Source of the DNA: Escherichia coli
GTDB lineage: Bacteria; Pseudomonadota; Gammaproteobacteria; Enterobacterales; Enterobacteriaceae
Assembly: GCF_003790525.1 (NCBI RefSeq)
Contig: NZ_CP033635.1
Reading direction: 5' to 3' (one strand)
DNA: 64,000 nucleotides
Program-made: the position numbers and the translations under genes
Shown: piece after piece, positions 615 to 17,178 of the stretch
How positions within the stretch are numbered: position 1 is the stretch's first letter
Layout of the letters: every line of letters starts with the position of its first letter
The notes under the pieces: model-generated
Told to the model about the DNA's origin: nothing
Seen by the model: the letters and a program-made list of their open reading frames with translations, nothing else
Databases searched by the model: none

Positions 615-3600
615 GTCGGGTGACAGGAGTCCATTGTGGACGGCTGGCATTCGTCTTCAGCAAACGCACCTCCAGTTCCCCTTCGCCAAATACCGACTGA
701 ACCAAATCAGCTGTCAAGGCGTCCCGATTGGGCGCTCGGGGTATCTGTCCCCTGGCTATCCACTGCTGCAAGCGGCTGCTGGCAAAACCCCTGAGATCAG
801 CGGCAACATCATTCAACCGGTCGGTCATTTTAATAATGGGCCGACCAGGCAGTACGGGGCAATCCTCAGGAATTTTGACCGACATCGCGCGCCTGAGAAG
901 CTTAATCGCCCCTTCCAGATGAGCAGTCAGATGGGTGACAGTCAGATCAATCGAACGTTGGAATTGCTCGAGGCTGTCCTGCACAGCTTCGAATACCTGC
1001 GAGATCCCTGTACCGACCCTCTCCAAATCGCCCAGCACTTCATGATAAGTTGCGATTGAGTCCAACTGCCGTAAGTATTCCTGACTGGCTCGGGCGTCTG
1101 GATCCTTGGCCAACTCTTCTTCGATGCGTTTGCGGAATTTTCCCCAGACCGTAGAGACGCGCATATTTTGCTGTTTTAGCGTTTCATTTAAACCGGCATA
1201 CACTTGGCATTGTGCAGCCAGATCGTCAGCATATTCTGTGATGCTCAGGATCCTACCAGGTAGACCTGCGGCAGAGCTCGGCGTAATGGGCTGGATCATC
1301 GCTTGAGCTGTTTTGGCGTTCTGTAGCCGCTCTTTCACATTTTCAATCTTTCTCAACAGCAGTGTCTTTTGTTCCAGTAGGAACTTGATCTGGTGTTCAA
1401 TCGCATAAAGGTTATTGACGATTTCAGCCAGAGACGTTTGGATTGCCTCTATCTCAATGGGCTTCTCTTCCCAGACAAAATCCTCGTCAAGTGCTTTACT
1501 AGCCTCCTCACAGCTTTGGGAAAATTTTTGCAGAGTTACCTGAGAGCTAATTAGATTTTGCGTGAATTGCTTTTGCTGTTCTTTGAGGCGTACGATGCTG
1601 TTATTAATTACCGTTAGCTCATTGATGGCCGCAGCTTTTACCTCATCCGGATATGTATTGTAGGTGGGTTGAGCGGTCAAACGATCAGAGGCGTAACGTT
1701 GTACCTGTTCAGCATCTTTCAGTTGTTGCTTGAGAACGGTCACTTGATCACCGTTGGCTGCTTCGAGCAATTTTTTGTGCGCCTGAGCAGCCATCTCATG
1801 GGCATATTCAGGGCTTCGTCCTTCCATACCTTCAGTCGCCGTAATCTCTGAATAGAACGGTTCGTTACACAGATTACTCCAGCTACCTATCTGGATAATT
1901 AAAAGGGTTTTCTCGGAGCGTTTGTTCTTCTCGAGCTCGCTCAGCCGTTCCAGCCTCTCTCTCTGGGTGTAAAGAGTGTTCTTGCTTCGCTGAATCTGTG
2001 CAGCTAACTGCTCCAGTTTCATTATCGCCGTTTCACGCTTCGCCCATTCTTTTTCTACAAAAAGACTCACTTTATCATGTGCTTTTTCTGCCTGAATTTT
2101 CTGCTGTTGGGCGTTGTTTAAACGCACCTGGACATCTCTCTTCTCGTCACGCAGTGTTTGCTCATCATGCTCAGCTTGCTTAAGTGCTGCATCAGCATTT
2201 TCCAGTATTAATAGAGCCAGCTCCCGTTGGTCAAGCAGTCCCGCCCAATGCTTACCATACTGTTCGTAATGCCGACTCCAGTCATTCCTGAAAGATTCCA
2301 GTACTTTAAGGGCGCTCTCCGTAGCCTTCACACTGACTTCCTGCGACGCTACAGTATTCTCCAGGTCTTGCAGCCGGGTTTCGTAAGCGGCCTGGCTATA
2401 TCCGTGCTTATCGGGGTTTGAGAGGACAACCTGTACTAATTCAGACGTTTCTCGGCGGAGATCTTGTGCTTCATCCAGCAAGTAAATAGCAATAGGTGCC
2501 TTCTTCCAGGGTAGGATCTCACTAATTTTATGGACCTGTTCAAACGTTACATTGTCGAGTGCGACCAGACTCAGGTAGCGGCCAGGGTTCTGATCGATCA
2601 CCGCTGCAATCTTTTGTGCATCATCGTTGTAAGCAGAGGCCAAATAGTGTGGAAATGTCCATAGCTTATCCCGTGCAATGCCCGCAGCATAAAACGCTTC
2701 AAGTGCCTCATTGACCTGCTTAGCAACCAGTTCATGTCCCGTCACCCTCAACTCGTCCAGTTCGTGCCGGGCTTGCAGTAAACGCTCTTTCATTCCATTC
2801 AGCGTTTGAGCGTTCGCATTCAATACTTTGTCGAGCTGCAATCCACACAGCTCGCTGTGCCAACTCGTGTCTTCAATATCCAGATCATGTCGCGTTGACG
2901 TTGGCAGTTTTTGATAGTTTTTTGCTAAAACTAAAGCACTATCCACAGCCGACTGGTGTTTTTGTTCAGCCAGAATGAGTTTTTGCTGGGCCTCACTTTT
3001 CTCAATTGATGCCTCCCGCACAACATTCAGCTGTGCTTCCAGCGCCTGCTCTTTCTGATGAAGAATTGTATTAGCCAGTTCTTCACTCTGCTTTGCATCG
3101 CGTAAGGTTAATTCCAGTCGGTATTGGGCTGCTACTGGTGTTTCATCCTTCTGGATCAACCCAGCTTCACATAATTCATTCCGTTGCGATTCGCCCTGAA
3201 ATTTGTCTCTTTTATATCCGTCACGCTCCGTTTCCAGACCACCCAACGTCTTTTGTATTTTATCGTATGACTGTCTGAGGACATGGCTTTCCCTGTCCAT
3301 CTGCCCTAATTCTTCCTCAAGCGTAGCCTCCTGCTGGCGATGTCTGTCGATTGCCCACTCTAATGTGCCCAAGGCTTCGCCAGCAGTACGCTCGAAAATC
3401 ACCTGTAGCGGCCTTTCCGTTTCACTTTGGAATACCTTCAGATCTTCATCTGCCTGGCGGTACTCATTCAGGGCCTTAGCATAGGCTTTGTAGTCTATAG
3501 CAGCGTGAGTAATCTCAATCTGGCGCTGATTGGTATCGGCCTCGTCTTGAAGCGCATCGACTATCGCTTTTTGTTTGTTGAACCGATGCTGCACGAGATC

Positions 3601-4686
3601 ATATTCAAGCAGTGCTCTGCGCTTACCTAACTGCTCACGCAGAGACATCGCCTGGCCAATATGCGTTTGCAAACTATCCATGTTATCTTCAAGCTGTGTC
3701 TGTTCAACCTGAGCATCCCCGACAAAGGCTGCGAGATCGCGCATTGCTTCTCGGAAGCCATCATCCAGCAGTTGCTGCTGTGCCTGGATGCTTTCCAGCT
3801 GTTTAGCCGGATCAAGAAACGCCAGCCAGTTAGCCAGCACATCCTTCAGGAAGGACTCGTTACGACGAATCCCCTCTAACTCTCCCTGACGTTCAACTTC
3901 ATGCGCTACCAGTTCCCGCAGCCGCTCAGCCGCATCTTTAGACATGGTGCAGGCGAAGAACGCGCCAAGGAAATCATGTTCAGTTTTGTATTCGATAAAA
4001 CGGGTCAGGCCACCTTCTTCGGAGTTGAAGGTCACCATTGTTTTGATAAGATCAACGTTAATTTGTTGTTCCAGTAAAAATGCGCGCCACTCGTTCTGTC
4101 TGGTGGTTTTACGCCAATGCATACCGCCTTCACTACCGGCCTTGAGATTAAGCCAGCTATCAAAACTGCGCAGGCTATTGGCATAGGGGCGCAGCTCAGA
4201 ATTGCGTTCCGCGCGGGAATAAGAAGGGACTTCATCAAACGGCGCGCCCATCAGGGAGTCGGGCGCATCACAAATAAACAGTGTGCGGTCAACATCATCT
4301 CCATTACGCTGATGAGCATGTCCTAGTAATAACGTTTGTCCTGATTCATTGACCATCTCAACCAAAACAACAGAGAGTTCTTTATAGAAGTAATTGCGGT
4401 AGTGGTATTCACTCTGGCGATGATTTGCCAGATATTGGGTGAAGTCACTAACGGACGGCTCAAAAATCGATAACAGCAGCGCGATGTAGGTCGACTTACC
4501 ACCCCCATTCACAAGCTGCTGATAAGTACTGGTCACCACCTTCGCATTCCTGACGGGCGAGCGCAGGCCTTCAACAACAGGGCTACTGACCGCTTGAGAC
4601 AGGCCAATATAGTCCAGTGTGAGGTCCTTGTAGAAAGCTTCTTCATGGCCTGCACCATCCATATAAACCCGTTTAATCAGCCACAT
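601..4686 (-). CDS. SMC-like P-loop ATPase with long coiled-coil arms (JetC/MksB/MukB-like); 3' end runs into the IS, probably C-terminally truncated
   Basis: 1361-aa ORF; N-terminal P-loop LVNGGGKSTY; >1000 aa of E/Q/K/L/R-rich heptad-like sequence; no C-terminal signature/Walker B head visible; last 4 codons and the stop (601..614) are IS-derived. Confidence 0.5.
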   Translation of the reverse strand: MWLIKRVYMDGAGHEEAFYKDLTLDYIGLSQAVSSPVVEGLRSPVRNAKVVTSTYQQLVNGGGKSTYIALLLSIFEPSVSDFTQYLANHRQSEYHYRNYFYKELSVVLVEMVNESGQTLLLGHAHQRNGDDVDRTLFICDAPDSLMGAPFDEVPSYSRAERNSELRPYANSLRSFDSWLNLKAGSEGGMHWRKTTRQNEWRAFLLEQQINVDLIKTMVTFNSEEGGLTRFIEYKTEHDFLGAFFACTMSKDAAERLRELVAHEVERQGELEGIRRNESFLKDVLANWLAFLDPAKQLESIQAQQQLLDDGFREAMRDLAAFVGDAQVEQTQLEDNMDSLQTHIGQAMSLREQLGKRRALLEYDLVQHRFNKQKAIVDALQDEADTNQRQIEITHAAIDYKAYAKALNEYRQADEDLKVFQSETERPLQVIFERTAGEALGTLEWAIDRHRQQEATLEEELGQMDRESHVLRQSYDKIQKTLGGLETERDGYKRDKFQGESQRNELCEAGLIQKDETPVAAQYRLELTLRDAKQSEELANTILHQKEQALEAQLNVVREASIEKSEAQQKLILAEQKHQSAVDSALVLAKNYQKLPTSTRHDLDIEDTSWHSELCGLQLDKVLNANAQTLNGMKERLLQARHELDELRVTGHELVAKQVNEALEAFYAAGIARDKLWTFPHYLASAYNDDAQKIAAVIDQNPGRYLSLVALDNVTFEQVHKISEILPWKKAPIAIYLLDEAQDLRRETSELVQVVLSNPDKHGYSQAAYETRLQDLENTVASQEVSVKATESALKVLESFRNDWSRHYEQYGKHWAGLLDQRELALLILENADAALKQAEHDEQTLRDEKRDVQVRLNNAQQQKIQAEKAHDKVSLFVEKEWAKRETAIMKLEQLAAQIQRSKNTLYTQRERLERLSELEKNKRSEKTLLIIQIGSWSNLCNEPFYSEITATEGMEGRSPEYAHEMAAQAHKKLLEAANGDQVTVLKQQLKDAEQVQRYASDRLTAQPTYNTYPDEVKAAAINELTVINNSIVRLKEQQKQFTQNLISSQVTLQKFSQSCEEASKALDEDFVWEEKPIEIEAIQTSLAEIVNNLYAIEHQIKFLLEQKTLLLRKIENVKERLQNAKTAQAMIQPITPSSAAGLPGRILSITEYADDLAAQCQVYAGLNETLKQQNMRVSTVWGKFRKRIEEELAKDPDARASQEYLRQLDSIATYHEVLGDLERVGTGISQVFEAVQDSLEQFQRSIDLTVTHLTAHLEGAIKLLRRAMSVKIPEDCPVLPGRPIIKMTDRLNDVAADLRGFASSRLQQWIARGQIPRAPNRDALTADLVQSVFGEGELEVRLLKTNASRPQWTPVTRRACT

Positions 4687-4688
4687 AC

Positions 4689-5585
4689 TTAAATCTCCGT
4701 CAAGCGTTGCGTTTCTGTGGTTCCAGTTGTAACTGGACGTTCATTGAGCGAAGGAAACTCCAGGGTATCTGCTAATGCTGCAAGATCGCTTTCAGCTAAA
4801 TCGGGCGACCGTTCTTCTACGGCTGGACTGATGCTCATGACAAAGCGCACCGTCTCTTCGATGCCAGTATGGCGCAGATAATGTTTGAGTTTTTGGGTCG
4901 GATACCAGTCGGACTCTCCCGACAGACTGCTGTCTTCGGCCAGAAAGCCTTCCTCCTGCAGCAGTTGTATCCAGCGCGTTGCCATTTCTGTTTGCGAGCG
5001 AATACTTGAGACACGCCCTACCTTTTCGTCGTGTATACGGGGAATACGTTCTTCCTGCACAAACCTGGCCGCCATAAGTAGGCCATCTACGGTATCGTCA
5101 CCCTCGGCCTTGCGCTGGGCAATCACCTGGTCGGCAACATTATTGAGCCTGGCTACCACCGAGGCGGCATTAATGGCGTTACTCTGACCGAACTCGACAC
5201 GAACGGTGTCTGGAGTTGGAAACAAATCAGCCAGCAACGCAATCAGAGTTAAGCCTGCAAACAGGCGCTGTTCTTTCCGTTCCTTACCCTGTTGCTCAGC
5301 CATTGTTTCAGGTAGCAAGCGTTTGTTCAGCCAACCCAAAGATGGGGAAAACGGACCTCGGCCATCTGCAGCCAGTAATACCCCGTAGGTCTCATGAATC
5401 CCAAGATACCGCAATTTCATACCTGTCGCGACGCCACGGATAATCTCTGTGAACAGGGCATCACCTTGCAGATCAAGAGCACGTTGAATCAGCTCATCCC
5501 CCATTTTATATCCCAGTGAATTCATAATTGCCTGCGTGGCAATCTCGGCGTAGCGTTTAGTTTGTTGATGCGCGTTGTCGTACAT
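4689..5585 (-). CDS. Middle subunit of the SMC-like operon (KITE/JetB/MksE-like by position and size)
   Basis: 298-aa ORF tightly packed (2-3 bp spacing) between the kleisin-like and SMC-like genes; no motif confirmed. Confidence 0.4.
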   Translation of the reverse strand: MYDNAHQQTKRYAEIATQAIMNSLGYKMGDELIQRALDLQGDALFTEIIRGVATGMKLRYLGIHETYGVLLAADGRGPFSPSLGWLNKRLLPETMAEQQGKERKEQRLFAGLTLIALLADLFPTPDTVRVEFGQSNAINAASVVARLNNVADQVIAQRKAEGDDTVDGLLMAARFVQEERIPRIHDEKVGRVSSIRSQTEMATRWIQLLQEEGFLAEDSSLSGESDWYPTQKLKHYLRHTGIEETVRFVMSISPAVEERSPDLAESDLAALADTLEFPSLNERPVTTGTTETQRLTEI

Positions 5586-5587
5586 AA

Positions 5588-7054
5588 CTACTCCTCAAAG
5601 GGGTATAAGGGAGCAACCGTTAACAGTTTGATATTGTTAGCCCGCCAGAGCGTTGTTTCGATAGCGCCGTCTATCTCCACTTCTATTGCGGGATCGCTGT
5701 TAGCTGCCAGGCTGCCAATATGGAGTAAACAAACCTGTTGCTCTTGTTCGGATAATTCTTCGCCCTCATAGGCGTCAAAAACATCTCTAAAGCTCACATG
5801 CCCCCAATTCTTCAATCGGTCACTAACCCAATCGCTGCATTTTTTAATGACAGATTCAGGGATACCTCGCAGGTTGGTTTCAATAGCTACAGGCTGATCG
5901 GTGAGGTCCTGTATCTCATGTGGAAGCGCCTGTTCAAATCTATCGAGATAAAGGTTCAGCAGCGCCTCAAGGTCAAACAGAATGTGCCGATCATCATCCT
6001 GTCTTCGGGGAGCCAACAGGCGTGCGGTGAGATCATCGATTTCCTTTTCGACAGTGTCGGGGGAATGAGACAGCAAGGGCTTGAGTGCACCTTTTTCCAG
6101 TGTTTCCCGAAAGAGGGTATTATCTCTGGGAATAATGAGTTTCAGACGAGCTCGCTCAAAATCTTTGTTAACATCAAGTAAGCAGTCTTGATAGCGCTGC
6201 GTAAAAGCGCAGACCTCAGCAAAAATCTCCTGTGCCCTACGTAGCTTATTTAATTTGTCGGGATTTATTTTCGAACTTCCTTCAACCAGCATTTCGGTAA
6301 TGGCCGACATTGAGTTCTGGATATGTTCCAAAACCTCTCGGGTTTTATCAAAGGAATCATTGAGTACGGGACGGATATCGTGTGCATAAGATGCACTCAA
6401 ATCACCAGACTGGGCGGCACGCACTTTCATCCGCATTCCAATCAGATATTGCTCCAGTTGCCGCTGTGTTGATTGGATCTGGTGTACTGCCTTGTCGATC
6501 TCTCCGCGACGGATGGTTTTAAGCGTGCGCCAGGCCAGAATCGCAGCGCGTTCTATCGGCGTTTCATCCAAGCGCAGGGTATAGAACAACATTCCTTCAT
6601 CAGTCAGCGACCAGAGAATATCATCTGAGCCGGATAGCTGGTCATAGCGTACCAGACGGACTATCTGCTCTTCGGAATGCGTTCGTTGCGAGAAATCATA
6701 ATAACGGAGGCGGAAAGGATCTTTGATCGCCGCAAAAATCTTGCTGGCCACTTGTGCGTAGTCGGGTTCTTCTTGTCCCGGATAGGCTTCATTGAGGTGC
6801 CCAACCAGACATAACTCCGCTTCCTTACGCGTCATTCCAGGCTGGCGCTCGCGGTCAGCATAATAAAGCATGGCGTCAAAGAGATACATGATTGCCGCCA
6901 GCGCATCAAGCTCAACACCATCGAACGGATTTCGCTGAAGGGCGCTATATATTGAATCCAGCGTCCGCACGACCAGTAAGGCGTGAGACTGAATAGACAG
7001 CTCACGACGTGCCATTGATTCATTACGAGCCTGCTCCAAAAACCCTAGCGACAT
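5588..7054 (-). CDS. First gene of the SMC-like operon (kleisin/JetA/MksF-like by position and size)
   Basis: 488-aa ORF; RBS GGGAG upstream of the ATG; operon order kleisin-KITE-SMC as in mukFEB/jetABC. Confidence 0.4.
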   Translation of the reverse strand: MSLGFLEQARNESMARRELSIQSHALLVVRTLDSIYSALQRNPFDGVELDALAAIMYLFDAMLYYADRERQPGMTRKEAELCLVGHLNEAYPGQEEPDYAQVASKIFAAIKDPFRLRYYDFSQRTHSEEQIVRLVRYDQLSGSDDILWSLTDEGMLFYTLRLDETPIERAAILAWRTLKTIRRGEIDKAVHQIQSTQRQLEQYLIGMRMKVRAAQSGDLSASYAHDIRPVLNDSFDKTREVLEHIQNSMSAITEMLVEGSSKINPDKLNKLRRAQEIFAEVCAFTQRYQDCLLDVNKDFERARLKLIIPRDNTLFRETLEKGALKPLLSHSPDTVEKEIDDLTARLLAPRRQDDDRHILFDLEALLNLYLDRFEQALPHEIQDLTDQPVAIETNLRGIPESVIKKCSDWVSDRLKNWGHVSFRDVFDAYEGEELSEQEQQVCLLHIGSLAANSDPAIEVEIDGAIETTLWRANNIKLLTVAPLYPFEE

Positions 7055-7099
7055 AACATTCTCCCTCTGAGACGGAAGCCACTATAGTACTCGCCCGCC

Positions 7100-7126
7100 A
7101 ATTAAGCAAAGAAACTTTGCTTAATT
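7100..7126. promoter_or_regulatory. Perfect 12-3-12 palindrome (AATTAAGCAAAG aaa CTTTGCTTAATT) in the divergent promoter region; candidate operator
   Basis: Read directly in the 175-bp AT-rich intergenic region between the divergently transcribed genes at 7054 and 7230. Confidence 0.5.
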
Positions 7127-7229
7127 TTTATTTATAGCAATGTTATTTGTTTTGATGTCATTCGCCTTCTATACTCAGTCGGTATATCAAACCGCAATTG
7201 ATTAACCTGCAAATAAGAATAAAACTGAT

Positions 7230-8123
7230 ATGTACTACTCAAAGTTTCTTGAGAAACACAAATCCCCCCTCAGCCACGCACAATGGTTGCGCTTGCGCTA
7301 TATTGAGCGCCAGCTACTGTGGGAACGAAAGGTCACTTCGCGCATGATTGCTGAAGAGTTTGGCGTCTCGGCGCAACAAGCTCGTACTGATGTAAGAACC
7401 TATATGGAGGTCGCTCCAGGCAATGCTATTGAGAAGGGGGCCGGCCGAAAAGGGTATTTCCCCAGTACGACGTTTACGCCTGTTTTGCTGGGAGACAACG
7501 ATCTGGTCTGGCGTACGACGGTAGAATTTCAACCGCCGCAAGCGGCCCACGCGCAGGAAATCCCGCTCATCCATCGCGCAGTGCATAGCCGCACGCTGGC
7601 AATTTTTTTGTCAGCAATCGAACAGAAAGGACAAGTAAAAGTGACTTATGCGTCAATGGAAAACCCGGAAGGCATATCTCGTACACTAAGCCCTACGGTA
7701 ATTATCACCGTTAACGGGCGTCAGCATGTGCGAGCCTATGACTGGGGAAGTTCGGCGTTTAAGGACTTTGTTTTGGCGCGATTTCTGGACTTGCCGGAAC
7801 TGATTGTTCCTGCACCCGCCCCGCCACGCAAAGATACCGCGTGGGAGGTCATAATCCCCGTGCGTTTTATAGCCAATCCAACACTAAACAAAGCGCAACA
7901 AGAGGTAATTAAGCGGGACTATTTACTTGAACCCTCTGAATTCAACATTCGTGCACCAATGATTTTTTATTTATGCCCTGAAAACAATCTGCCTAAAACA
8001 GATGATGAATATGCACAAGCTACTGACGCCAGCAGCCACGGCCCCTTTATCTACCCTGTTCTAGCTGTGCACGCCCAAACAGGGGAGCCTATTCATAAGT
8101 ACCGCCATGCAGGTGAGAGATAG
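7230..8123 (+). CDS. Putative HTH-WYL-type transcriptional regulator (BrxR/CapW-like architecture)
   Basis: 297 aa; N-terminal HTH-like segment (SRMIAEEFGVSAQQARTDVRTYME); central region resembling a WYL domain; divergent from the SMC-like operon. Confidence 0.45.
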   Translation: MYYSKFLEKHKSPLSHAQWLRLRYIERQLLWERKVTSRMIAEEFGVSAQQARTDVRTYMEVAPGNAIEKGAGRKGYFPSTTFTPVLLGDNDLVWRTTVEFQPPQAAHAQEIPLIHRAVHSRTLAIFLSAIEQKGQVKVTYASMENPEGISRTLSPTVIITVNGRQHVRAYDWGSSAFKDFVLARFLDLPELIVPAPAPPRKDTAWEVIIPVRFIANPTLNKAQQEVIKRDYLLEPSEFNIRAPMIFYLCPENNLPKTDDEYAQATDASSHGPFIYPVLAVHAQTGEPIHKYRHAGER

Positions 8124-8319
8124 ACATTCTGTTTACTAATAATTTATAGCCATTCACTGTTCCTGCATCATAGATATGGTGCAGCAACATTAAACACCAG
8201 CCATCTAAAAATTATGATTTATTAATTTCTGATTCAGTTAAATTCCTCTGAAAATAGATCCGTTATAGTTCCATGCATCTTTTGAAATCCCGACCAAATA
8301 ATGGGGTCGGCAAACATCT

Positions 8320-8520
8320 ATTTGAGACGTTGGTTCTCATCCTCAAGATCTTTGATTATTTTAATATCAGAAGATTCCATACCACCGTATCTGGACTTCC
8401 AGTTGTAGTAAGTGGCTCAGAGAAGCCTGCCTCCCGGCAGACATCTTTAACAGTTCGCCCGTATTCAAGCGATTTAATCACGGCGATAATCTGATGCTCA
8501 GTAAAAGGGGCTTTACGCAT
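8320..8520 (-). pseudogene. IS3-family orfA remnant (HTH transposase N-terminus), frameshifted
   Basis: Minus-strand translation MRKAPFTEHQIIAVIKSLEYGRTVKDVCREAGFSEP then, after a 1-nt frameshift, TYYNWKSRYGGMESSDIKIIKDLEDENQRLK; no orfB follows. Confidence 0.6.
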
Positions 8521-8594
8521 AGCGATCTCCTTCATTGGCAGATTGATTATGCCGGAGGATCTCTAAATGTTAATGGCACGATTATGCGGGATAT

Positions 8595-9500
8595 TTACAA
8601 TACCAGTCCAACCCTCAGCTTACTGCAATGCCCATCAAGAGGGATGGTCCACATTGACGTATCAAAATCGCTCTCTGACCAGCGAGCAAAACGCAGCTCA
8701 CTGGATCGAATAAAGATAAGCAGAGTGAGTTCTGTCGCCCAGCGGGTTAGCGGCCTGCCGGTATAGCTGTCTATTTTCTCAAGTAACTCAGGGATGCGCT
8801 TTAACTCCAGCGCCGGACGATGCTGTCGATTACTGGAAGCAACCGCCCCCGCCATCTCCTGCGCCGGATTGTAATGAATTAACCCGCTTTGCACTGCATA
8901 ACGCATGATGGCCGTGGTGCGCTGTTGAAGGCGGGAAGCCACTTCAAAACGTCCAGATTTCTCCACGGCTTTAATGGGAATTAACAGATCGCGGGTGCCC
9001 AGTTCAGCAATATTGCGAGCACCAATTGTTGGGAAGATATTGTCCTCCAGGCTCTTTTTTCCACGATTAGCATGATCTTCCGACCATTTTTGGTTTGTCA
9101 CGAGCCACTCTCTGGCAACCTTCTCGAAAGTAATAATCTCTTTCGCCTGCTCTTCTTTCACAGCACGTTTATGCTCACGAGGATCGATACCAGCAGCGAC
9201 CAGCTTTCTGGCCTCTTCCCTTTTCTTCCGCGCATCCGCCAGCGAAACATCCGGGTAAACGCCGAACGCCATCAAATGTTGTTTACCACCAAAACGGAAA
9301 CGAAATCACCAATACTTTGAACCGCCAGGTTTTACAAGTAAAGACATGCCGTCGCCGTCAACAAGTGAATACTCTTTCTCCTCTGACTTCACAGAACGAA
9401 CTTTAGTATCCGTTAGGGCAATAATGGTCTTCCTTCCATTGGTATCTCGTGAGTATACAAGCAATATCGAATCGGCAAATATACTCATAAGTATACTCAC
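8595..9500 (-). pseudogene. P4-type tyrosine integrase, frameshifted and lacking the catalytic C-terminal domain
   Basis: ORFs 9306..9500 and 8595..9275 together align with the N-terminal ~260 aa of the intact integrase at 19562..20827 (LTDTKVRSVK, FGVYPDVSLADAR, IMRYAVQ, SSELRFARW); ends just after WTIP. Confidence 0.85.
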
Positions 9501-9592
9501 AAGCCTGTTGATGTGGGTTGAGTCAGGTTGACTTCAGTTGAGAAGAAAAGCTGGAAAAGCCTTGCGTGGCGCGGATTTCAGGCATAAAAAAA

Positions 9593-9608
9593 GACCTCAG
9601 TTGAGGTC
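9593..9608 (-). terminator. Rho-independent terminator-like hairpin
   Basis: GACCTCAGTTGAGGTC palindrome preceded by an A-run on the plus strand (T-run on the minus strand). Confidence 0.45.
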
Positions 9609-9622
9609 TATTTACATACTTT

Positions 9623-9641
9623 TGGTGCGAAGGCCGGACTC
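9623..9641 (-). other. tRNA 3'-end-like remnant; probable att direct repeat at the junction of the two islands
   Basis: TGGTGCGAAGGCCGGACTC resembles the leuX 3' end TGGTGCCGAAGGCCGGACTCGAACC (one indel, one mismatch). Confidence 0.5.
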
Positions 9642-9819
9642 AAACATCAAAATAAGTTAATGATAAAAAACAAATAATAAAACACAACAATGAAATATGC
9701 CCCCTTTTGTGCCCCCACTGTTTTTCTGACCAATCTATTTTCAGCCCATCAATAAATCGGAAAGTTAAATCATTTTTAATCAGTAAGTTTGGATCCGTAG
9801 CTCGGCTCCAAACCAGTGC

Positions 9820-10140
9820 ATCTTTTATCCACATAAAAAATTTTTTTTCGAAAGAACTGTTCACACTGTTCACCTTTCTGTTTTCTCCTTTTATTTCATA
9901 GTGATAGGTGGTGAATAATGGGTGAAGGGTGAACATTCGATTCTTCACCTCCGGCATTCTGCCGGTGTGACTTGTGCAGGGGATTAATTTCCCGTGCTGA
10001 AATCACACCGGAAGAAAAAAGTTTTTTTTGATTTGATTGTTCACACTGTTCACCTTTCGTTTTTCTCTTTTAATTTCAGTGTGATAACGGGTGAATATAC
10101 GGTGAAGGGTGAACAGTGGATTGTTCACCTTCGGGGAATT
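9820..10140. repeat. P4 crr-like region: two tandem ~120-bp direct repeats carrying TGTTCACC/GGTGAACA octamers
   Basis: TGTTCACACTGTTCACC at 9858..9874 and 10037..10054; GGTGAAGGGTGAACA in both units; lies just past the 3' end of the alpha gene. Confidence 0.7.
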
Positions 10141-10179
10141 CAGGGATAAAAAAAGACCGGCAGATGCCGGTCAGGTGGG

Positions 10180-12513
10180 TCAGGCTGTTGCAGGGTCGTC
10201 ACATTTTGGCAGCCAGTCGCCGTAGCTTTCCTCTTTCAGCGTCAGGTTGGTCTGTATCCCCTGTTTGGTATGGCGCTTCTCGTAATTCAGTCCGTATTCC
10301 TTCAGCATCACCGGCAGCCCCAGCCCGAACATTTTCAGACTGAGTACATTCCGGTAGCCGTTTGCCTCCATGTAGGCCAGATAGGCGTGATAGAGGTATT
10401 TACGGTAATTGCGCGGGATGATACTGGCGTTCCCCATATACATGCCGCTGGTCTGCGGCAGGGTTTCCAGATAGCCGATAAAATCAAACGTCGGGTCGGC
10501 ATCCCGTTTGATGTTCAGTGCCTCGTCTGAGTTCTGCTGGGACTGAAGCAGTGACCGGGCGAGCATCGGGTCGCTGAACTTCTGCATCAGGTGACGCACG
10601 ATGACCGCCAGCTCGCGGGTGATTTTGTCCTTAAGCTGCGGGTCGCGCTCCTGCGGGGCTATCTGTTCCGGGAAGTGAATAATCACCCGCCGGCGTGACA
10701 CGCCGCCGCTGCGGTCGGTGAAGCGCATCGGGTTATTGTTCACGGCCAGAATTACCGCCGGGATATGCGTGGAGTATGCATCCCGGTATTTCGGGTCAAC
10801 GGACACCGCATCGCCGCCGGTGATGGCCTTGAGTCCGGCACCGTCGCCGCTCCATTTTTCCTGGTCCGGCAGGCGTATCAGTGAGAAGCCAGTTAACGCG
10901 GCACGTTCACGCGGGGATTCCAGCGTCTCGATGGTGGCCGACGTGGCGTTATCCTCCCCGGCCAGCAGGGTGGCTATTTCGGCCATGATACTTTTGCCGC
11001 TGCCGCCGGGACCGGTCACCTCCAGAAAGAGCTGCCAGTCGTAGCGGTTTGCCAGCACCATAAACAGTGCGGCCAGAATCACGTCGCGTTTTTCCGCACG
11101 GCCACCGGCGGCACGGTCAAGCCAGCACCAGAACGCGGGGGCGTGGGTCTCCAGCGTTTCACCGTCCACCGGCGGGGTGAAATCCACATCGCACAGGGTG
11201 CGCATCCAGTGTGACGGACTGTGCGGGTGGAACGTGCCGTTCTGCGTGTCGAGCACGCCGTTACGAAAGCCAATCAGGCGGCGGGAGGGGGCTTCCTGCT
11301 GCGGAATAATCAGCTTCAGGGTGTCCACCACGGAGGCCACCTTCCCGGAGGAGAACGGCGCGCGCAGACGCTGAAACAGCCCGGCCACATCCCGGGCAAA
11401 GTCCTGTGGTGGCAGCACCTTCCAGACACCATTTTCATAACGGGACAGAAGCTGGCCGTTGGCATCGACCGCGAGCGCCTCGCCGTAATGCTCATAGATA
11501 CGCATGGCCTTTTCGCTGGTACTCATGGCGGAAAACTCCGCTTCACTCATGGTGTCGAACGGGCTTTCAGCCGGTGGCCGGATGGCATCGTAAATGGCCT
11601 TACGGGTGGCCTCCCCGCCGTACTGCGTGAAGGCATCATTCCAGTCACCGAAGACCGGTGGCAGGGCAACAACACCTTCACACGCATCTGCGGCTGCGGC
11701 GGCTTTTTTCTGGCCATCACCGCTGAGGTCACGGTCAGCGGCAAGGACAATCTGACAGGCGGGGTGCTTCTGCCGGGCAAGGCTGGCCAGAGAAAGGAGG
11801 TTCACGGAAGAAAGCGCCACCATCACCGTTTCACCGGTCAGGTGATGCACGGTAAGTGCGGTCGCGTATCCCTCCGCTATCCACAGACGTTTTCCGGCCT
11901 GATTCTGTCCTTCAAGGATGTGACAGGTGCCCCTGACCTGTCCGCCTTTCAGGGTGCGCTTACGGCCGTCAGCACTGATTAACTGAAGGTTAACCAGTTC
12001 GCCGCTGTCGTCATACAGTGGCACCACAAGGTCACCGGCGCGCCAGCTCACGCCACCGGCTCTGTGTGTGCCGGTCAGCATCCGGCATTCCCGGCCGGGA
12101 AAGCCCTTGCGGGTCAGGTAGGCGTTACCGGTTCCGGGACGGGTTTTCGCCATCAGGGTTTGTGCCAGTGCGGCGGCGTTCTTCCGGGCAGCGTCTGTTT
12201 CAGCACCGGCGGCAGCCGTCACTGCCGGGTCAGCCGGGGGCAGGCTGCCGGTCACGGCAGCCACCTTTGTGGCCGCGTCGGACGGGGAGACACCAAACAC
12301 CTTTTCAACCAGTTTCAGGCCGTCACCGGCACCACACTGATTGCAGTACCAGGTGCCGCGCCCCTCCCTGTCATCAAAACGGAAGCGGTCACTCCCGCCA
12401 CAGACCGGACAGGGCTGATGACGGTTCTTCAGCACCTGAATCCCCAGCGCCGGGAGAATACGCGGCCAGTGGCCGAGCGCATGGCTGACGGTGGCGGTTA
12501 CGTTCATTTTCAT
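10180..12513 (-). CDS. P4 alpha-type primase-helicase
   Basis: 777 aa (the length I recall for P4 alpha); N-terminal zinc-binding CPVCGG...CNQCG; P-loop GPGGSGKS. Confidence 0.9.
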   Translation of the reverse strand: MKMNVTATVSHALGHWPRILPALGIQVLKNRHQPCPVCGGSDRFRFDDREGRGTWYCNQCGAGDGLKLVEKVFGVSPSDAATKVAAVTGSLPPADPAVTAAAGAETDAARKNAAALAQTLMAKTRPGTGNAYLTRKGFPGRECRMLTGTHRAGGVSWRAGDLVVPLYDDSGELVNLQLISADGRKRTLKGGQVRGTCHILEGQNQAGKRLWIAEGYATALTVHHLTGETVMVALSSVNLLSLASLARQKHPACQIVLAADRDLSGDGQKKAAAAADACEGVVALPPVFGDWNDAFTQYGGEATRKAIYDAIRPPAESPFDTMSEAEFSAMSTSEKAMRIYEHYGEALAVDANGQLLSRYENGVWKVLPPQDFARDVAGLFQRLRAPFSSGKVASVVDTLKLIIPQQEAPSRRLIGFRNGVLDTQNGTFHPHSPSHWMRTLCDVDFTPPVDGETLETHAPAFWCWLDRAAGGRAEKRDVILAALFMVLANRYDWQLFLEVTGPGGSGKSIMAEIATLLAGEDNATSATIETLESPRERAALTGFSLIRLPDQEKWSGDGAGLKAITGGDAVSVDPKYRDAYSTHIPAVILAVNNNPMRFTDRSGGVSRRRVIIHFPEQIAPQERDPQLKDKITRELAVIVRHLMQKFSDPMLARSLLQSQQNSDEALNIKRDADPTFDFIGYLETLPQTSGMYMGNASIIPRNYRKYLYHAYLAYMEANGYRNVLSLKMFGLGLPVMLKEYGLNYEKRHTKQGIQTNLTLKEESYGDWLPKCDDPATA

Positions 12514-12527
12514 GGTGTTGTTCTCCT

Positions 12528-12848
12528 TCAGTGCAGTACCGGCGCTTTTATGTGACGGGCACAGAGTTCATCCATCACAACCAGCCCGAGAAAGGACAGC
12601 GACGGCGCGGCCTTCAGGGGGCCGGATTCCATTAAATCTTCCAGCAGGGCACAGGCTATCTGACGCCCTTTTTCCTCACCGTGCTGGCGCAGATAAAAGC
12701 CTTCCAGCTCAGCGGCGATGGCCGCCTCCAGTGACTCAAGGGTGAGATGCGGGTAGCGGTGCTGACGTTCGCACACGGTCAGCCAGGCACAGGCGACAGC
12801 GCGACGGTAAAGGGCAGCGCGTAAGACGGGCGGTAAGGGTGTTTTCAT
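12528..12848 (-). CDS. Hypothetical protein, P4-like accessory ORF
   Basis: 106-aa ORF immediately upstream of alpha on the same strand. Confidence 0.55.
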
Positions 12849-12983
12849 TTGTTTTCCTCCCTGTGACAGATGACTGCATTCCGTGCCGGTTGCATTAACT
12901 GATAAGGCATATCTGCGTCTCCTGAAGACGTGCGTATCCCTGCGCGAATACGCACATTTAATTTTTCGGGTGTCGTTTTTTAA

Positions 12984-13439
12984 TTACAGATAATTGCGGT
13001 AACTGTTATCCGGGGTGATTTCCGGGTCAGGCTCCGTGCGGGGAATTTCCCGCCATTCCCGCGCCACCGGTGCCGCCCGGCTGACCGGAACAGTGTCCTG
13101 CGGGTAAATATCCAGATATTTCTCCCGCCATTTCTGTAATTCCGGGTCTCCGGCCATTTCTTTCAGTACCGCATGCCGGTTTACGGGGCTGCGTTTGAAC
13201 AGGTCAGGACGGTCACAGGTAAATTCCCGCAGAAAACGCCCCAGCGGGATGTCTGTGGTGCGCCCGTCGGCGAGGATACGCACAAGGATACTGAATTTAC
13301 GGCGGTACGGGTTCCAGACAATGTCCGGGCAGCGGTACGGCATTTCCCACGGAATACCGTCTTCCAGAATGCCGACCACGGCCACATCGGGAAAACCGGC
13401 AGAACGGTAAATCTCACCGGGCTGGGGAAAATCAAACAT
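12984..13439 (-). CDS. Hypothetical protein, P4-like accessory ORF
   Basis: 151-aa ORF in the same operon orientation. Confidence 0.55.
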   Translation of the reverse strand: MFDFPQPGEIYRSAGFPDVAVVGILEDGIPWEMPYRCPDIVWNPYRRKFSILVRILADGRTTDIPLGRFLREFTCDRPDLFKRSPVNRHAVLKEMAGDPELQKWREKYLDIYPQDTVPVSRAAPVAREWREIPRTEPDPEITPDNSYRNYL

Positions 13440-13800
13440 GCGTCCTGTCTCCCCGGTCTTTCTGCTGGGCGAGAAAATCGCGGCACAGGCCTTTGGCTTT
13501 CAGCTCATTCAGCACAAAATCAATATCTTCATTCAGGTAGCTGAAAATATGCGGAATGTAGAGCTGATGCAGGCCGGAGAGTTCACGGTGAATCAAATCA
13601 CCCCCAACAAACTGGGATACGGCGCTGGCGCGGTTGAGCTTATGGTAAGCCTCAATGCTGAGGTGTTCACGGGCGTCATGACGCGCTGAGACGGTCTGAG
13701 GGGCTTTTTTATTACGCACGGGACACCTCCACCACCGGCAGACGGGCAGCAAGGGAGAGCACATAGTCACGGACAAGGGAACGGCGGGCGCTGCGTTCAT
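13432..13800 (-). CDS. Hypothetical small protein in the position of P4 epsilon; start uncertain
   Basis: ORF 13432..13959 with internal ATG candidates at 13800 and 13764; overlaps another frame (13712..14302). Confidence 0.3.
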
Positions 13801-14298
13801 CACCGGCGACGGTGCGAAGCATGCAGATACGGGGATGACGGTCTGCGCGACGGACAGCCGCAAACACAAAGACAAATTCAGGGTGTGAGGGGGTAAGGGT
13901 TGTAGCCATAAGGCAGCCTCCTTCGAGTAGCAAATAACTGCTATCGCCGGAGTTCTCACGCTCGATGGCGATAGCCCAGACGGGGGTGAGAATACCGGCC
14001 TCGAAGAATACCGGCCAGCCCGGAGGCTGCCCCGCCTGAGCTACCATTGACTCAGTGGCATAACATGCGATTGCGAACAGGATAATACCTGCACGGCAAA
14101 CCACACGCCACACCATAATCTGGCGCTCTGTGGCGTTGATTGCGACACAAAAAAAGACGCATGGCGCGTCATATGTCGCCTTCGAGTTACACGGGTTCTC
14201 ACGCCCGGCTGCCGATTTTGCGGCAACGGAAAGACTATATCCGCAAATGCCGGAAAAAGGCAAGCCAGAAAAAGGGAGTTTTTGCAGAGCGGGCATCA

Positions 14299-14565
14299 TC
14301 ATGCGTCATACCCCCGTTTGCGTCCGGCAATGCGGCCGGCCATCCATGCGGTGACTTCAGAGTGCAGCCAGGCCACATTTTTACCGCCAAGACTCACCTG
14401 CGGCGGAAATTCCCCCTTACGGATGAGTTCGTAGATGGTCGAGCGTGACAGGCCGCACAGGTGCATCACTTCCGGAAGACGCAAAAAACGCTCCTGTGTG
14501 ATGTCCGGCTGCGGCATCAGTGGCGTCACAGGGGCGGGAGACGGGGAAGAAAAAACAGCTTGCAT
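14299..14565 (-). CDS. AlpA-family phage transcriptional regulator / excisionase-like protein
   Basis: 88 aa; HTH segment [27 protein letters not shown] typical of the AlpA family. Confidence 0.75.
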
Positions 14566-14844
14566 CGGGCTACCTCGTTAATGTCCATACAGCACCGGAT
14601 AAGTCTGTCCGGCTTCGGGTAGCGCTTTATTTTGTGAATATTTTCAGCAGACGCAACAGGGGGGATTTGTTCCGGCAGCCTTACAATGCTTGTGTGTTTT
14701 TTGTTCATCTCCACTTAAAGTCATTTAAAGCCACTTAAAGCAATTCGTAATTTTTATAGTGAAATACAAATCGTTTTTTCTTATTCATTCCCGGCGAATT
14801 AATAAAAACAAACAGTAGTAAACAGCACAAAAAGCCCATCAACG

Positions 14845-14950
14845 GGTGAACAGTGGTGAACAGACGGTGAACAGTCATTACTGCGATTGTTCACCCTTTA
14901 ACTTACTGTATTACTTATCTTTTTTCTTATGGCGAACAGAGGTGAACAGT
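14845..14950. repeat. P4 ori-like iteron cluster (at least 5 GGTGAACA/TGTTCACC octamers)
   Basis: GGTGAACAGTGGTGAACAGACGGTGAACAG, then TGTTCACCC, then GCGAACAGAGGTGAACAG; about 4.7 kb from the crr-like repeats. Confidence 0.65.
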
Positions 14951-15117
14951 AAAATATAAAAAAACAAACAGTAAGACGGTTTTTCCTGCGACCTTTTCCT
15001 GGCTTGCCGGTGTGAGGATGAGTCTCCTGTGTCAGGGCTGGCACATCTGCAATGCGTCGTGTTGTTGTCCGGTGTACGTCACAATTTTCTTAACCTGAAG
15101 TGACGAGGAGCCGGAAA

Positions 15118-15852
15118 ATGTCTGACAACACCATCCCTGAATATCTGCAACCCGCGCTGGCACAACTGGAAAAGGCCAGAGCCGCCCATCTTGAGAACGC
15201 CCGCCTGATGGATGAGACCGTCACGGCCATTGAACGGGCAGAGCAGGAAAAAAATGCGCTGGCGCAGGCCGACGGAAACGACGCTGACGACTGGCGCACG
15301 GCCTTTCGTGCAGCCGGTGGTGTCCTGAGCGACGAGCTGAAACAGCGCCACATTGAGCGCGTGGCACGCCGGGAGCTGGTACAGGAATATGACAATCTGG
15401 CCGTGGTGCTGAATTTTGAACGCGAACGCCTGAAAGGGGCGTGTGACAGCACGGCCACCGCCTACCGGAAGGCACATCATCACCTGCTGAGTCTGTATGC
15501 AGAGCATGAGCTGGAACACGCCCTGAATGAAACCTGTGAGGCGCTTGTCCGGGCAATGCATCTGAGCATTCTGGTACAGGAAAATCCGCTCGCCAACACC
15601 ACCGGGCATCAGGGCTACGTCGCACCCGATAAAGCTGTCATGCAGCAGGTGAAATCATCGCTGGAACAGAAAATAAAACAGATGCAAATCAGCCTCACCG
15701 GCGAGCCGGTTCTCCGGCTGACCGGACTGTCAGCGGCAACACTCCCGCACATGGATTATGAGGTGGCAGGCACACCGGCACAGCGCAAGGTGTGGCAGGA
15801 CAAAATAGACCAGCAGGGAGCAGTGCTTAAGGCCAGAGGACTGCTGTCATGA
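15118..15852 (+). CDS. sid: P4 Sid-like capsid size-determination protein
   Basis: 244 aa from the ATG at 15118 (RBS GAGGAG); followed by delta and psu in P4 order. Confidence 0.7.
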   Translation: MSDNTIPEYLQPALAQLEKARAAHLENARLMDETVTAIERAEQEKNALAQADGNDADDWRTAFRAAGGVLSDELKQRHIERVARRELVQEYDNLAVVLNFERERLKGACDSTATAYRKAHHHLLSLYAEHELEHALNETCEALVRAMHLSILVQENPLANTTGHQGYVAPDKAVMQQVKSSLEQKIKQMQISLTGEPVLRLTGLSAATLPHMDYEVAGTPAQRKVWQDKIDQQGAVLKARGLLS

Positions 15853-16349
15853 TTTACTGCCCGTCGTGTGGACATGTTGCTCACACCCGTCGCGCACATT
15901 TCATGGACGATGGCACCAAGATAATGATTGCACAGTGCCGGAATATTTATTGCTCTGCGACATTTGAAGCGAGTGAAAGCTTTTTCTCTGACAGTAAAGA
16001 TTCAGGAATGGAATACATTTCAGGCAAACAGAGATACCGCGATTCACTGACGTCAGCCTCCGGCAGTATGAAACGCCCGAAAAGAATGCTTGTTACCGGA
16101 TATTGTTGTCGGAGATGTAAAGGCCTTGCACTGTCAAGAACATCGCGGCGTCTGTCTCAGGAAGTCACCGAGCGTTTTTATGTGTGCACGGATCCGGGCT
16201 GTGGTCTGGTGTTTAAAACGCTTCAGACCATCAACCGCTTCATTGTCCGCCCGGTCACACCGGACGAACTGGCAGAAAGCCTGCATGAAAAACAGGAACT
16301 GCCGCCAGTACGGTTAAAAACACAATCATATTCGCTGCGTCTGGAATGA
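15849..16349 (+). CDS. Ogr/Delta-family zinc-finger late-gene activator (tandem Ogr-like repeats)
   Basis: 166 aa; two CxxC...C..C units (YCPSCGH...CRNIYC and CCRRCKG...CTDPGC); ATGA overlap with the sid stop. Confidence 0.8.
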   Translation: MIYCPSCGHVAHTRRAHFMDDGTKIMIAQCRNIYCSATFEASESFFSDSKDSGMEYISGKQRYRDSLTSASGSMKRPKRMLVTGYCCRRCKGLALSRTSRRLSQEVTERFYVCTDPGCGLVFKTLQTINRFIVRPVTPDELAESLHEKQELPPVRLKTQSYSLRLE

Positions 16350-16422
16350 GGGCTGCCGGTTAACACCGGCCGTCGCCGCACACCGTATTTTTATTCTTCA
16401 GCATGATGAGAAAGAGATAACG

Positions 16423-16995: not shown

Positions 16996-17159
16996 AATTC
17001 CCCGAAAATCCGCCCGTTTTTACTGAAAAAAGCCATGCATCGATAAGGTGCATGGCTTTGCATGCGTTTCCCTGCCTCATTTTCTGCAAACCGCGCCATT
17101 CCCGGCGCGGTCTGAGCGTGTCAGTGAAACTGCATTAAAACCGCCCCGCAAAGCGGGCG

Positions 17160-17178
17160 GGCGAGGCGGGGAAAGCAC
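17160..17178. other. P2/P4-type cos cohesive-end site
   Basis: GGCGAGGCGGGGAAAGCAC read directly; matches the P2/P4 cos sequence as I recall; sits after psu as in P4. Confidence 0.6.

Follow-up and report, generated by a model that had tools for sequence, protein, structure and literature searches.

The leuX locus of this Escherichia coli genome is best read as two mobile elements accreted in tandem: an older defence-gene island whose P4-type integrase has decayed, and a P4-like satellite that now lies between this integrase relic and the tRNA gene. We give the whole two-layer account, including a satellite crossover within the terminal GCACCA of the tRNA, a probability of roughly 0.8. All positions refer to the 64,000-nucleotide stretch of contig NZ_CP033635.1 (assembly GCF_003790525.1) that was analyzed, here called the window. 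The features on which the account turns are the following.

8249..8599, minus strand: IS3-family element, internally deleted, both ends kept (90% identity to the strain 779 element; terminal repeat alignment)
8356..8535, minus strand: orfA ORF remnant, 59 aa, part of the IS3-family element
8600..8634: 35-nt spacer that separates the end of the IS from the point where the integrase is cut off
8635..9422, minus strand: pseudogene of the older P4-type integrase (homology searches, Pfam, ortholog alignment, PGAP note)
9573..9622, minus strand: stranded native leuX downstream flank with terminator hairpin AAAAAAAGACCTCAGTTGAGGTCT, found directly after leuX in K-12 and CFT073
9623..9645: satellite attR, TGGTGC-GAAGGCCGGACTCAAAC, the leuX 3'-end core with a 1-nt deletion and G>A at 9643
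9646..20978: P4-like satellite prophage, ~11.3 kb (P4 identity, Rfam, profiles, PGAP names in strain 2D)
20979..21063, minus strand: leuX, intact tRNA-Leu(CAA) (ARAGORN; Rfam tRNA, 59.4 bits)

The proposed history runs as follows. The older island would have entered the leuX 3' end with its own P4-type integrase, which would have lost its catalytic half by a rearrangement beside an IS3-family element, probably a single old event now found in many lineages. In the present lineage the start codon of this integrase would also have been lost and a nonsense codon gained. The older island, presumably no longer able to excise itself, would have become a fixed hotspot of defence genes. The attP of a P4-like satellite would then have recombined with the same leuX 3' end, so that the satellite came to separate leuX from the old integrase; this would have stranded the old leuX terminator and flank at 9573..9622 and made the hybrid site 9623..9645.

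The integrase relic and the adjoining IS element

Two ORF fragments, at 9306..9500 and 8595..9275 (both minus strand), align with the intact integrase at 19562..20827 with 39% identity over residues 5-42 and 53% over residues 57-266 (E = 3e-74). This confirms the homology to P4-type integrases proposed in the initial annotation, and its estimate that only some 260 N-terminal residues survive was also accurate. There are 262 codons left, with 50-53% identity to P4 Int. Pfam recognizes the arm-binding domain (Arm-DNA-bind_3, E = 3.3e-28, residues 3-87) and the central core-binding domain (Phage_int_M, E = 1.1e-26, residues 99-193) and returns no Phage_integrase match, i.e., the catalytic domain with its tyrosine nucleophile is gone. 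The alignment to the full-length ortholog of CFT073 ends at window position 8635, and the end of homology is equivalent to residue 266 of the 439 in P4 Int.

The same annotation described one frameshift in this gene. A frameshift is ruled out by single-frame translation, which gives an in-frame TGA only: both fragments share one frame and are separated by the TGA at 9306..9308, where orthologs have CGA. The other lesions are the 3' truncation and a lost start codon (ATT at 9420..9422, ATG in orthologs). PGAP describes the relic in sister genomes as 'internal stop; incomplete; missing C-terminus'. By its sequence, then, it is a pseudogene of a P4-type integrase and not a functional member.

The IS element beside the relic had been taken for an IS3-family orfA remnant. 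The family relation stands, and the remnant comprises more than orfA, both IS ends being present. Its left end and the 5' part of orfA occupy 8305..8599 (about 296 bp, with a 1-nt frameshift in orfA), its right end occupies 8260..8304 (45 bp), and the interior has lost ~854 bp; the remnant is 90% identical to two separate parts of an IS3-family element with a programmed frameshift (PGAP, strain 779). On the left the element clearly ends at 8599; its putative outer limit, 8249, is set by the start of a probable right terminal inverted repeat. No target-site duplication is visible, the flanking bases being different. An NCBIfam profile search with the 59-aa orfA remnant gave no match, and the PGAP name stops at 'IS3 family'. 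The remnant is a deletion derivative related to the IS3 family, predicted to be devoid of a functional orfA-orfB transposase.

Nor does the element directly abut the truncation point, as had been stated: 35 nt lie between the IS terminus at 8599 and the end of integrase homology at 8635. This spacer is homologous to neither the full IS copy nor the full-length integrase ortholog, and a search of E. coli genomes found no independent source for it. A weak match in strain A19 was rejected as the opposite strand of an unrelated gene.

Sister genomes and the order of the two layers

The same relic (99.9% identical) lies directly at leuX, with no satellite, in strains CM2, TUM1586 and e1-39, where the att core is wild-type as judged from alignment length. 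In strain 702/18, whose island differs from the window by 1 mismatch in 6.6 kb, the relic adjoins an 84-nt leuX that carries the one-base deletion. In other genomes the tRNA-proximal position is taken by something else: strain 2D has a P4-like satellite that carries TIR genes, O157:H7 FRIK944 one that carries restriction-modification genes, and O157:H7 JEONG-1266 a non-P4 element whose integrase has 639 aa. Over the 6.5 kb up to the relic, these two O157:H7 genomes are distinguished by 4 mismatches and 1 gap. Relic and satellite thus do not always co-occur at related leuX loci, and the comparison supports the tandem accretion that was first proposed, with an older island followed by a P4-like satellite. 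The order of integration is read from position and strain polymorphism and is relative, not dated. Because 374 of 5426 complete E. coli genomes have an identical truncation junction, in two alleles ~94% identical, the decay of the integrase appears to be older than the satellite. In the O157 allele of the relic, neither the stop nor the start lesion is present.

Cargo of the older island and its presumed immobility

The window holds the following genes of the older island (cargo 601..8123) and the element that interrupts them.

1..~614: IS256-family element, cuts JetC3 (IS256-like transposase reading frame)
601..4686, minus strand: JetC3 (PADLOC, E = 0; cut at 1358 of 1478 profile positions)
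4689..5585, minus strand: gene in the JetB position (no PADLOC match)
5588..7054, minus strand: JetA3 (PADLOC, E = 0)
7230..8123, plus strand: WYL regulator

Homology to strain 2D begins at window position 615, and in that strain JetD is annotated just beyond the window's edge. Further out, the island of relatives carries Zorya II, Druantia-like and phosphorothioate-dependent nuclease genes.

It was initially claimed that the integrase lesions explain why this SMC-like island is immobilized. We can only infer that they may do so. The loss of the catalytic domain agrees with the claim, as does the outcome of a search for a distal leuX repeat of the older island (up to 4 errors allowed), which found none in the window or within 45 kb in strain 2D. 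The Wadjet genes, in contrast, form a separate indel, and the cargo in CFT073 is different. One possibility, which we regard as rather unlikely, is that the integrase relic comes from a small earlier element (an older satellite or a short island) unrelated to the Wadjet genes, which would have arrived later, and by a separate route, in a recombination hotspot; decay of the integrase would therefore not explain why the Wadjet genes are immobile. Indeed, the WYL regulator and the putative Wadjet type III module constitute a ~10.2-kb indel starting at window position 8112, 137 bp from the probable outer IS end at 8249, and O157:H7 islands with the same relic do not have it. Separate arrival would also agree with CFT073, where type III restriction-modification genes lie beside this integrase allele (95-97% identical), and with the missing distal att repeat that would bound one coherent island. 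However, the relic, the IS remnant and the phosphorothioate-nuclease, Zorya and Druantia-like genes are syntenic across divergent lineages, which fits one old island since remodelled, and no other mobility gene for the Wadjet block is seen between 7054 and 8249.

The P4-like satellite

The initial annotation also placed a P4-like satellite in the tRNA-proximal position, which is borne out by the integrase, by arm repeats and crr that match P4, and by a C4 RNA. Its components are listed below.

~9835..10134: P arm and crr/ori repeats (P4 identity)
10180..12513, minus strand: alpha primase-helicase (TIGR01613; length equal to P4 alpha)
13964..14051, minus strand: C4 immunity RNA (Rfam C4, 74.3 bits)
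14150..14227, minus strand: isrK (Rfam)
15100..16995, plus strand: sid/delta/psu block (Psu and Delta-like named by PGAP on the strain 2D locus)
17369..19501, plus strand: hotspot cargo, a 710-aa P-loop ATPase in the slot between psu and int
19562..20827, minus strand: satellite tyrosine integrase, P4-type, intact, 421 aa (90% identity to P4 Int over 414 aa)

Window positions 9646..10180 are 96.4% identical to positions 4102..4636 of P4 (X51522), where crr, ori repeats and attP arm repeats are annotated, and the P' arm-type repeats at ~20830..20870 match, without a difference, P4 repeats that the same entry annotates. Profile matches were found below the curated cut-offs for both the integrase (NF007246, E = 5e-82, 275.7 bits, cut-off 434) and, narrowly, alpha (TIGR01613, P4 primase C-terminal domain, 108.3 bits, cut-off 108.7). 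In the strain 2D locus, 99.2% identical to the satellite, PGAP names Icd-like, HTH, Delta-like and Psu proteins. By P4 identity, profiles and PGAP names the core components int, psu, delta, an alpA-like regulator, alpha and a putative sid stand in P4 order. The flanking att sites share the leuX core and are accompanied by arm-type Int repeats; core comparison shows that the attL core (20979..20998) is the 3' 20 nt of leuX itself, and attR is the site at 9623..9645. The satellite is possibly still mobile. Its 710-aa ATPase has weak PADLOC matches to two CARF-type models (E about 2e-4 to 9e-4), with no defence-system assignment.

The displaced leuX end and the origin of its one-base deletion

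Repeat mapping places the sole second copy of the leuX 3' end within the window at attR, so that the tRNA-like repeat is not scattered. This copy had been described as 19 nt long and imperfect (9623..9641). It is real and unique in the window; its length is 23 nt (9623..9645), and it lies inside a 73-nt block (9573..9645) that equals the K-12 leuX end plus its downstream terminator, the two attR changes aside. The same 73 nt are matched at 97.3% under tRNA-Leu in more than 2000 genomes.

The differences between attR and leuX are probably not decay and would instead have been carried in by the satellite. The A at position 9643 belongs to the P arm of P4 attP in the comparison with X51522, and the corresponding part of the attR core is probably satellite-derived because the deletion and the A closely accompany the arm of the incoming satellite. 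The native flank followed by the deleted core and AAAC is found in ~300 genomes, the perfect core followed by AAAC in no more than 7, and the deleted core is joined to the tRNA body in 12 of 5426 genomes, with the wild-type arrangement in ~2710; these counts are not phylogenetically independent, many of the genomes being O157:H7 clones. The deleted core with AAAC also stands beside at least five unrelated left flanks, including leuX terminators of other species, and at the junction of two tandem satellites on an IMG/VR contig. If the satellite attP brought both the 1-nt deletion and the A to the hybrid site, strand exchange would therefore have taken place within the 6 bp TGGTGC, equal to the tRNA terminal GCACCA, and leuX would have remained host-derived and intact. 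P4-type integrases use an asymmetric 3'-end sublocation. A literature search for P4 Int cleavage positions yielded nothing usable.

The deleted attP is read from integrated copies only. All nine IMG/VR contigs with the deleted core look like integrated junctions (from their flanks and, for three, gene content), and neither IMG/VR nor a one-genome-per-species scan contained a free circular or packaged attP with the deletion. The latter scan gave 3 matches, one of them probably a real tRNA variant in Pantoea, and a pattern search of IMG/VR with the perfect core gave no match. The attP of laboratory P4 (X51522) has a perfect 20-bp core with no deletion.

This last observation would agree with a different scenario, in which the host leuX already carried the deletion before the satellite came (as in 702/18), attP was perfect, and a crossover within the 13 bp GAAGGCCGGACTC repaired leuX and displaced the damaged end to 9623..9641. 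In strain 702/18 the same island does adjoin an 84-nt leuX from which precisely this base is missing. Moreover, deleted relics are also found beside non-P4 elements whose identity block extends further into the tRNA, and therefore deleted leuX alleles do sometimes precede the arrival of a new element and serve as its integration target. Textbook logic, by which an incoming element rebuilds the tRNA 3' end and pushes the original fragment aside, points the same way (Islander, PMC4383910). Nevertheless, we consider a prior host deletion improbable. Deleted leuX is rare (the 12 genomes above) and deleted attR is ~40 times commoner than perfect attR, whereas wild-type leuX targets should give perfect relics, of which almost none are seen. 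In O157:H7 the deletion comes with the satellite: the relic of JEONG-1266 is perfect and that of a near-identical relative with a satellite has the deletion. The flanks from several other species and the satellite-satellite junction also argue against it. The idea that the relic deletion marks an old host leuX end repaired by the satellite was downgraded after these population counts and cross-species flanks.

Taking the deletion as satellite-borne, we see an even chance that the following holds more generally. Natural P4-like satellites would have an attP core with the 1-nt deletion, unlike laboratory P4; Int would cross over in the six terminal bp GCACCA, so that the rest of the 20-bp core need not match; and aberrant loss of a satellite would scar the leuX acceptor stem, probably leaving a crippled leuX in a few strains. 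The scarred leuX 3' end occurs in 12 of the 5426 genomes, in at least three of them as annotated leuX.

Finally, the notion that the 23-mer and the integrase-like ORFs are chance likenesses in intergenic or decayed sequence of an ordinary kind that holds no island boundary draws on the shortness of the repeat and nothing further, and can be dismissed in view of the zero shuffle matches for the 24-mer, the 0.06 expected for the 13-mer, the integrase match at E = 3e-74, and a homology break at exactly 9645/9646 both in sister genomes and in P4.

Significance

Layered islands at leuX with a dead integrase are common and ordinary. The junction is annotated as pseudogenes in hundreds of RefSeq genomes and carries little weight as a discovery; the locus is a textbook case of tRNA genes gathering layers of mobile DNA while old integrases decay. 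For annotation, the value lies in the boundary between a possibly mobile satellite (9646..20978) and a fixed defence island, and in the corrected integrase lesions. A deleted att core travelling with satellites, if true, would locate the crossover by P4 Int at the extreme end of leuX and would explain the rare leuX alleles with a one-base deletion in the acceptor stem.

Comparison with known systems

The closest known system is P4 at the leuX gene of K-12 (intB, cryptic prophage PR-Y / KpLE2), which uses the same target, the leuX 3' end, with the same core TGGTGCCGAAGGCCGGACTC. The present satellite shares with P4 an Int of 90% identity, the arm repeats, crr and alpha. It differs in the 1-nt deletion of its attR, which the published P4 attP does not have, and in its 710-aa ATPase, the hotspot cargo of P4 being another. 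Directly after leuX, K-12 likewise has a degenerate P4-type integrase (an annotated pseudogene) and an IS, and its terminator flank is the same. Its intB and the relic described here are different alleles (~72% DNA identity), and beyond intB it has IS2, whereas the IS at our relic is an IS3-family element.

The leuX islands of pathogenic E. coli, such as PAI II of strain 536 and the O157:H7 leuX island, combine a P4-type integrase with large accessory cargo. The O157:H7 genomes examined have the same truncated integrase and IS junction as the window. The cargo here consists of defence systems, that of the pathogenic leuX islands of virulence genes.

In the tandem arrays described by Islander, island ends are marked by a regenerated tRNA and a displaced fragment, as they are here, and by the Islander definition every array member must have an integrase and a tRNA fragment of its own (PMC4383910). 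At the present locus a single tRNA gene is accompanied by two integrase genes that point the same way. The proximal member has both an integrase and a fragment of its own; in the distal one the integrase is dead, and a search over 45 kb in strain 2D found no second fragment.

P4-like satellites with defence hotspots share the order int ... psu-delta-sid ... alpha with a variable psu-int slot (PMC8628076; Rousset et al., 2022, PMC9122126), and the same order is found here, the slot holding the 710-aa P-loop ATPase where relatives have TIR or restriction-modification genes. Such satellites are reported to lie beside other mobile elements with their own integrase, and also as tandem elements (Moura de Sousa and Rocha, 2022, PMC8628076). 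In nothing essential does the present satellite differ from this group, of which it is one more member.

The leuX locus and its two integrases

An intact P4-type integrase lies beside leuX, the sole tRNA gene of the window, and a decayed one lies beyond the far end of the P4-like satellite.

Features at the leuX locus (window coordinates)
8635..9422, minus strand: relic integrase, a truncated P4-type pseudogene
9646..20978: P4-like satellite
13964..14051, minus strand: C4 antisense (P4 immunity) RNA and a1/b1 target (Rfam), expected in a P4-like element
14150..14227, minus strand: isrK (Rfam), also expected in a P4-like element
19562..20827, minus strand: intact integrase, 421 aa, immediately downstream of leuX in the tRNA direction
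20979..21063, minus strand: tRNA-Leu(CAA) gene leuX

The intact integrase and P4 Int share 90% identity over 414 residues. According to the initial annotation, the second integrase is homologous to it and retains only the N-terminal ~260 aa. Both points hold, because ORF 8595..9275(-) matches residues 57-266 of the intact integrase (53% identity, E = 3e-74), ORF 9306..9500(-) matches residues 5-42 (39% identity), and a Pfam search of the relic found arm-binding and central domains but no catalytic domain. Taken together, the two ORFs align with P4 Int residues 5-266 at 50% identity.

The single frameshift that had also been proposed does not survive. When 8300..9500(-) is translated in a single frame, both ORFs share that frame and are split only by a TGA at 9306..9308, which aligns with CGA in the O157:H7 and CFT073 orthologs. 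The start codon is ATT, compared to ATG in the same orthologs, and the match to the full-length CFT073 integrase ends at 8635. By these alignments the relic carries three lesions (stop, start and truncation) with no frameshift among them, in agreement with the NCBI annotation of the identical sequence (“internal stop; incomplete; missing C-terminus”). The truncation and the IS remnant also occur in the O157 allele, which lacks the stop and start lesions; the latter two appear to be later, lineage-specific decay.

Satellite positions 9646..10180 are 96.4% identical to P4 4102..4636 (arm repeats, crr and ori repeats), starting exactly past the annotated P4 attP core, and the arm-type repeats on both satellite sides are identical to P4. 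The element carries alpha, C4 immunity RNA, isrK, a Delta-like gene and Psu, and nothing suggests that it is dead. Its psu-int hotspot (17369..19501, plus strand) encodes a 710-aa P-loop ATPase with a weak match to the NCBIfam Sll1717 family and a weak CARF-like C-terminus. In sister satellites this slot is occupied by either a TIR-domain protein or a restriction-modification system of type II. Separately, an IMG/VR metagenome contig (L010 2430..14259) holds a tandem pair of P4-like satellites at leuX, with a leuX 3'-end core lacking 1 nt where the integrase arm of the distal satellite meets the alpha arm of the proximal one.

Occupancy of leuX across genomes

The region with the exact truncation junction is present in 374 of 5426 complete genomes, as two alleles ~94% identical.

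Arrangement between leuX and the relic integrase
CM2, TUM1586, e1-39: relic adjoins leuX without a satellite; alignment length indicates a wild-type core
702/18: relic directly adjoins an 84-nt leuX carrying the same 1-nt deletion
2D: P4-like satellite with TIR-domain cargo
O157:H7 FRIK944: P4-like satellite whose cargo is restriction-modification
O157:H7 JEONG-1266: unrelated element encoding a 639-aa integrase

The relic is thus seen without a satellite, with satellites of differing cargo and with an unrelated element, as predicted by the tandem accretion originally proposed for this locus. It appears to be old and fixed, with the tRNA-proximal slot re-used repeatedly.

The displaced leuX end and the crossover

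An imperfect 19-nt copy of the leuX 3' end had been described beside the relic. The copy exists, but with a different extent. No second match to the leuX-end 24-mer occurs in the window at up to three substitutions; once an indel is permitted, the copy spans 9623..9645 (TGGTGC-GAAGGCCGGACTCAAAC) and differs from leuX by one deletion and a single G>A change. It closes a 73-nt block (9573..9645) that is the leuX 3' end and terminator in more than 2000 E. coli genomes, K-12 included. Such repeats are not scattered over many unrelated positions, the 13-mer GAAGGCCGGACTC occurring exactly twice in the window against 0.06 expected.

One candidate explanation for the imperfect copy was prior damage to the host leuX, which the satellite would then have repaired. 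Population counts argue against it.

Core and flank combinations (genomes not phylogenetically independent)
Native flank, deleted core, AAAC (satellite arm): ~300 genomes
Native flank, perfect core, AAAC (satellite arm): at most 7 genomes
Any flank, deleted core, tRNA body: 12 genomes (of 5426)
Native flank, perfect core, tRNA body: ~2710 genomes

P4 attP reads TGGTGCCGAAGGCCGGACTC and then AAAC, and therefore the A at 9643 belongs to the satellite arm; the laboratory P4 core is without the 1-nt deletion. The deleted core with AAAC stands beside at least five differing left flanks, other species' leuX terminators among them, and also at a two-satellite tandem junction in a metagenomic contig. 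In an O157:H7 pair with 4 mismatches and 1 gap between them over 6.5 kb, the deletion is present in the strain that has a satellite, and the relic is perfect in the strain that bears another element. By the counts, the varied flanks and this pair, the deletion and the A are therefore linked and fall on one side of the crossover. Since, in addition, the base left of TGGTGC is A in the satellite arm versus T in the host flank, we infer that strand exchange would have occurred within TGGTGC, the GCACCA end of the tRNA. A free attP with the deletion was not seen, the deletion being known from integrated copies only. This att-core deletion of the satellite is one small detail, possibly new.

Annotated leuX is 84 nt in strains 702/18 (L001 10494..10577) and O111:H21 15A (L020 2501..2584), the acceptor stem lacking one G in its 3' strand. 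One acceptor-stem pair is lost, the Rfam score is 45.5 bits vs 59.4 for intact leuX, and the predicted folding energy changes from -31 to -23.9 kcal/mol. These alleles may be scars of satellite loss via crossover in the 13-bp identity, and deleted relics beside non-P4 elements could have the same origin. Displaced leuX 3' fragments with the same 1-nt deletion are also present in LD22-1 (L021 ~2501..2530) and 582 (L022 ~2480..2531), where they adjoin non-P4 elements and the identity block extends further into the tRNA; the 582 fragment ends in a tandem triplication of GGTGCGAA.

The IS remnant and the Wadjet cargo

Positions 8305..8599 correspond, at 90% identity, to the left end plus 5' orfA of a strain 779 element annotated “IS3 family transposase, programmed frameshift”, with orfA broken by a 1-nt gap in this interval. 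Positions 8260..8304 match the opposite end of the same element, and with both ends matched ~854 bp of IS interior must have been deleted. The left terminus is sharp, at 8599, and the right terminal repeat probably begins at 8249. The remnant is adjacent to the integrase truncation but does not directly abut it, as had been stated: 35 nt (8600..8634) intervene, for which no source was identified in E. coli genomes, the IS copy or the integrase ortholog. On the integrase strand this spacer reads TGGGCATTGCAGTAAGCTGAGGGTTGGACTGGTAT, which gives the impression of loosely resembling an IS3-type terminal repeat. No target-site duplication surrounds the remnant, which, together with the spacer, fits deletion or rearrangement rather than simple insertion.

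Next to the relic lie genes for a WYL regulator and for Wadjet type III (matches to JetA3 and JetC3, E = 0), with JetD annotated just outside the window in strain 2D. There the island extends as far as nanS/nanM and along the way holds a phosphorothioate-dependent nuclease, Zorya II, and large genes for helicase and methylase functions; it has no distal leuX repeat. Integrase decay had been offered as the reason why this SMC-like island is immobile. Self-excision is indeed implausible, since a catalytic integrase and a second att site are both absent, but the tie between integrase and Wadjet genes is unproven. The WYL-JetABCD block (~1..8111) is a ~10.2-kb indel relative to O157:H7 islands bearing the same integrase/IS relic, and in CFT073 the genes beside this integrase allele are those of type III restriction-modification. 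The indel boundary, 8112, and the inferred outer limit of the IS remnant are 137 bp apart. In this strain jetC (601..4686) is split by an IS256-family transposase gene (1..~614, minus strand) that continues past the window start. Because JetC3 is thereby cut short, its match ending at 1358 of 1478 profile positions, Wadjet type III of this strain is probably inactive.

Comparison with known systems

With three factual corrections the initial reading is correct, and the leuX architecture described here is ordinary and already annotated. P4-like satellites are abundant, adjoin other integrase-bearing elements, occur in tandem and carry variable defence hotspots (PMC8628076; PMC9122126), and Islander provides a catalogue of tandem arrays at tRNA genes (PMC4383910). 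In K-12, intB is an annotated pseudogene inside “cryptic prophage PR-Y”, followed by an IS. P4 integration beside a degenerate P4-type integrase at K-12 leuX is the classical situation.
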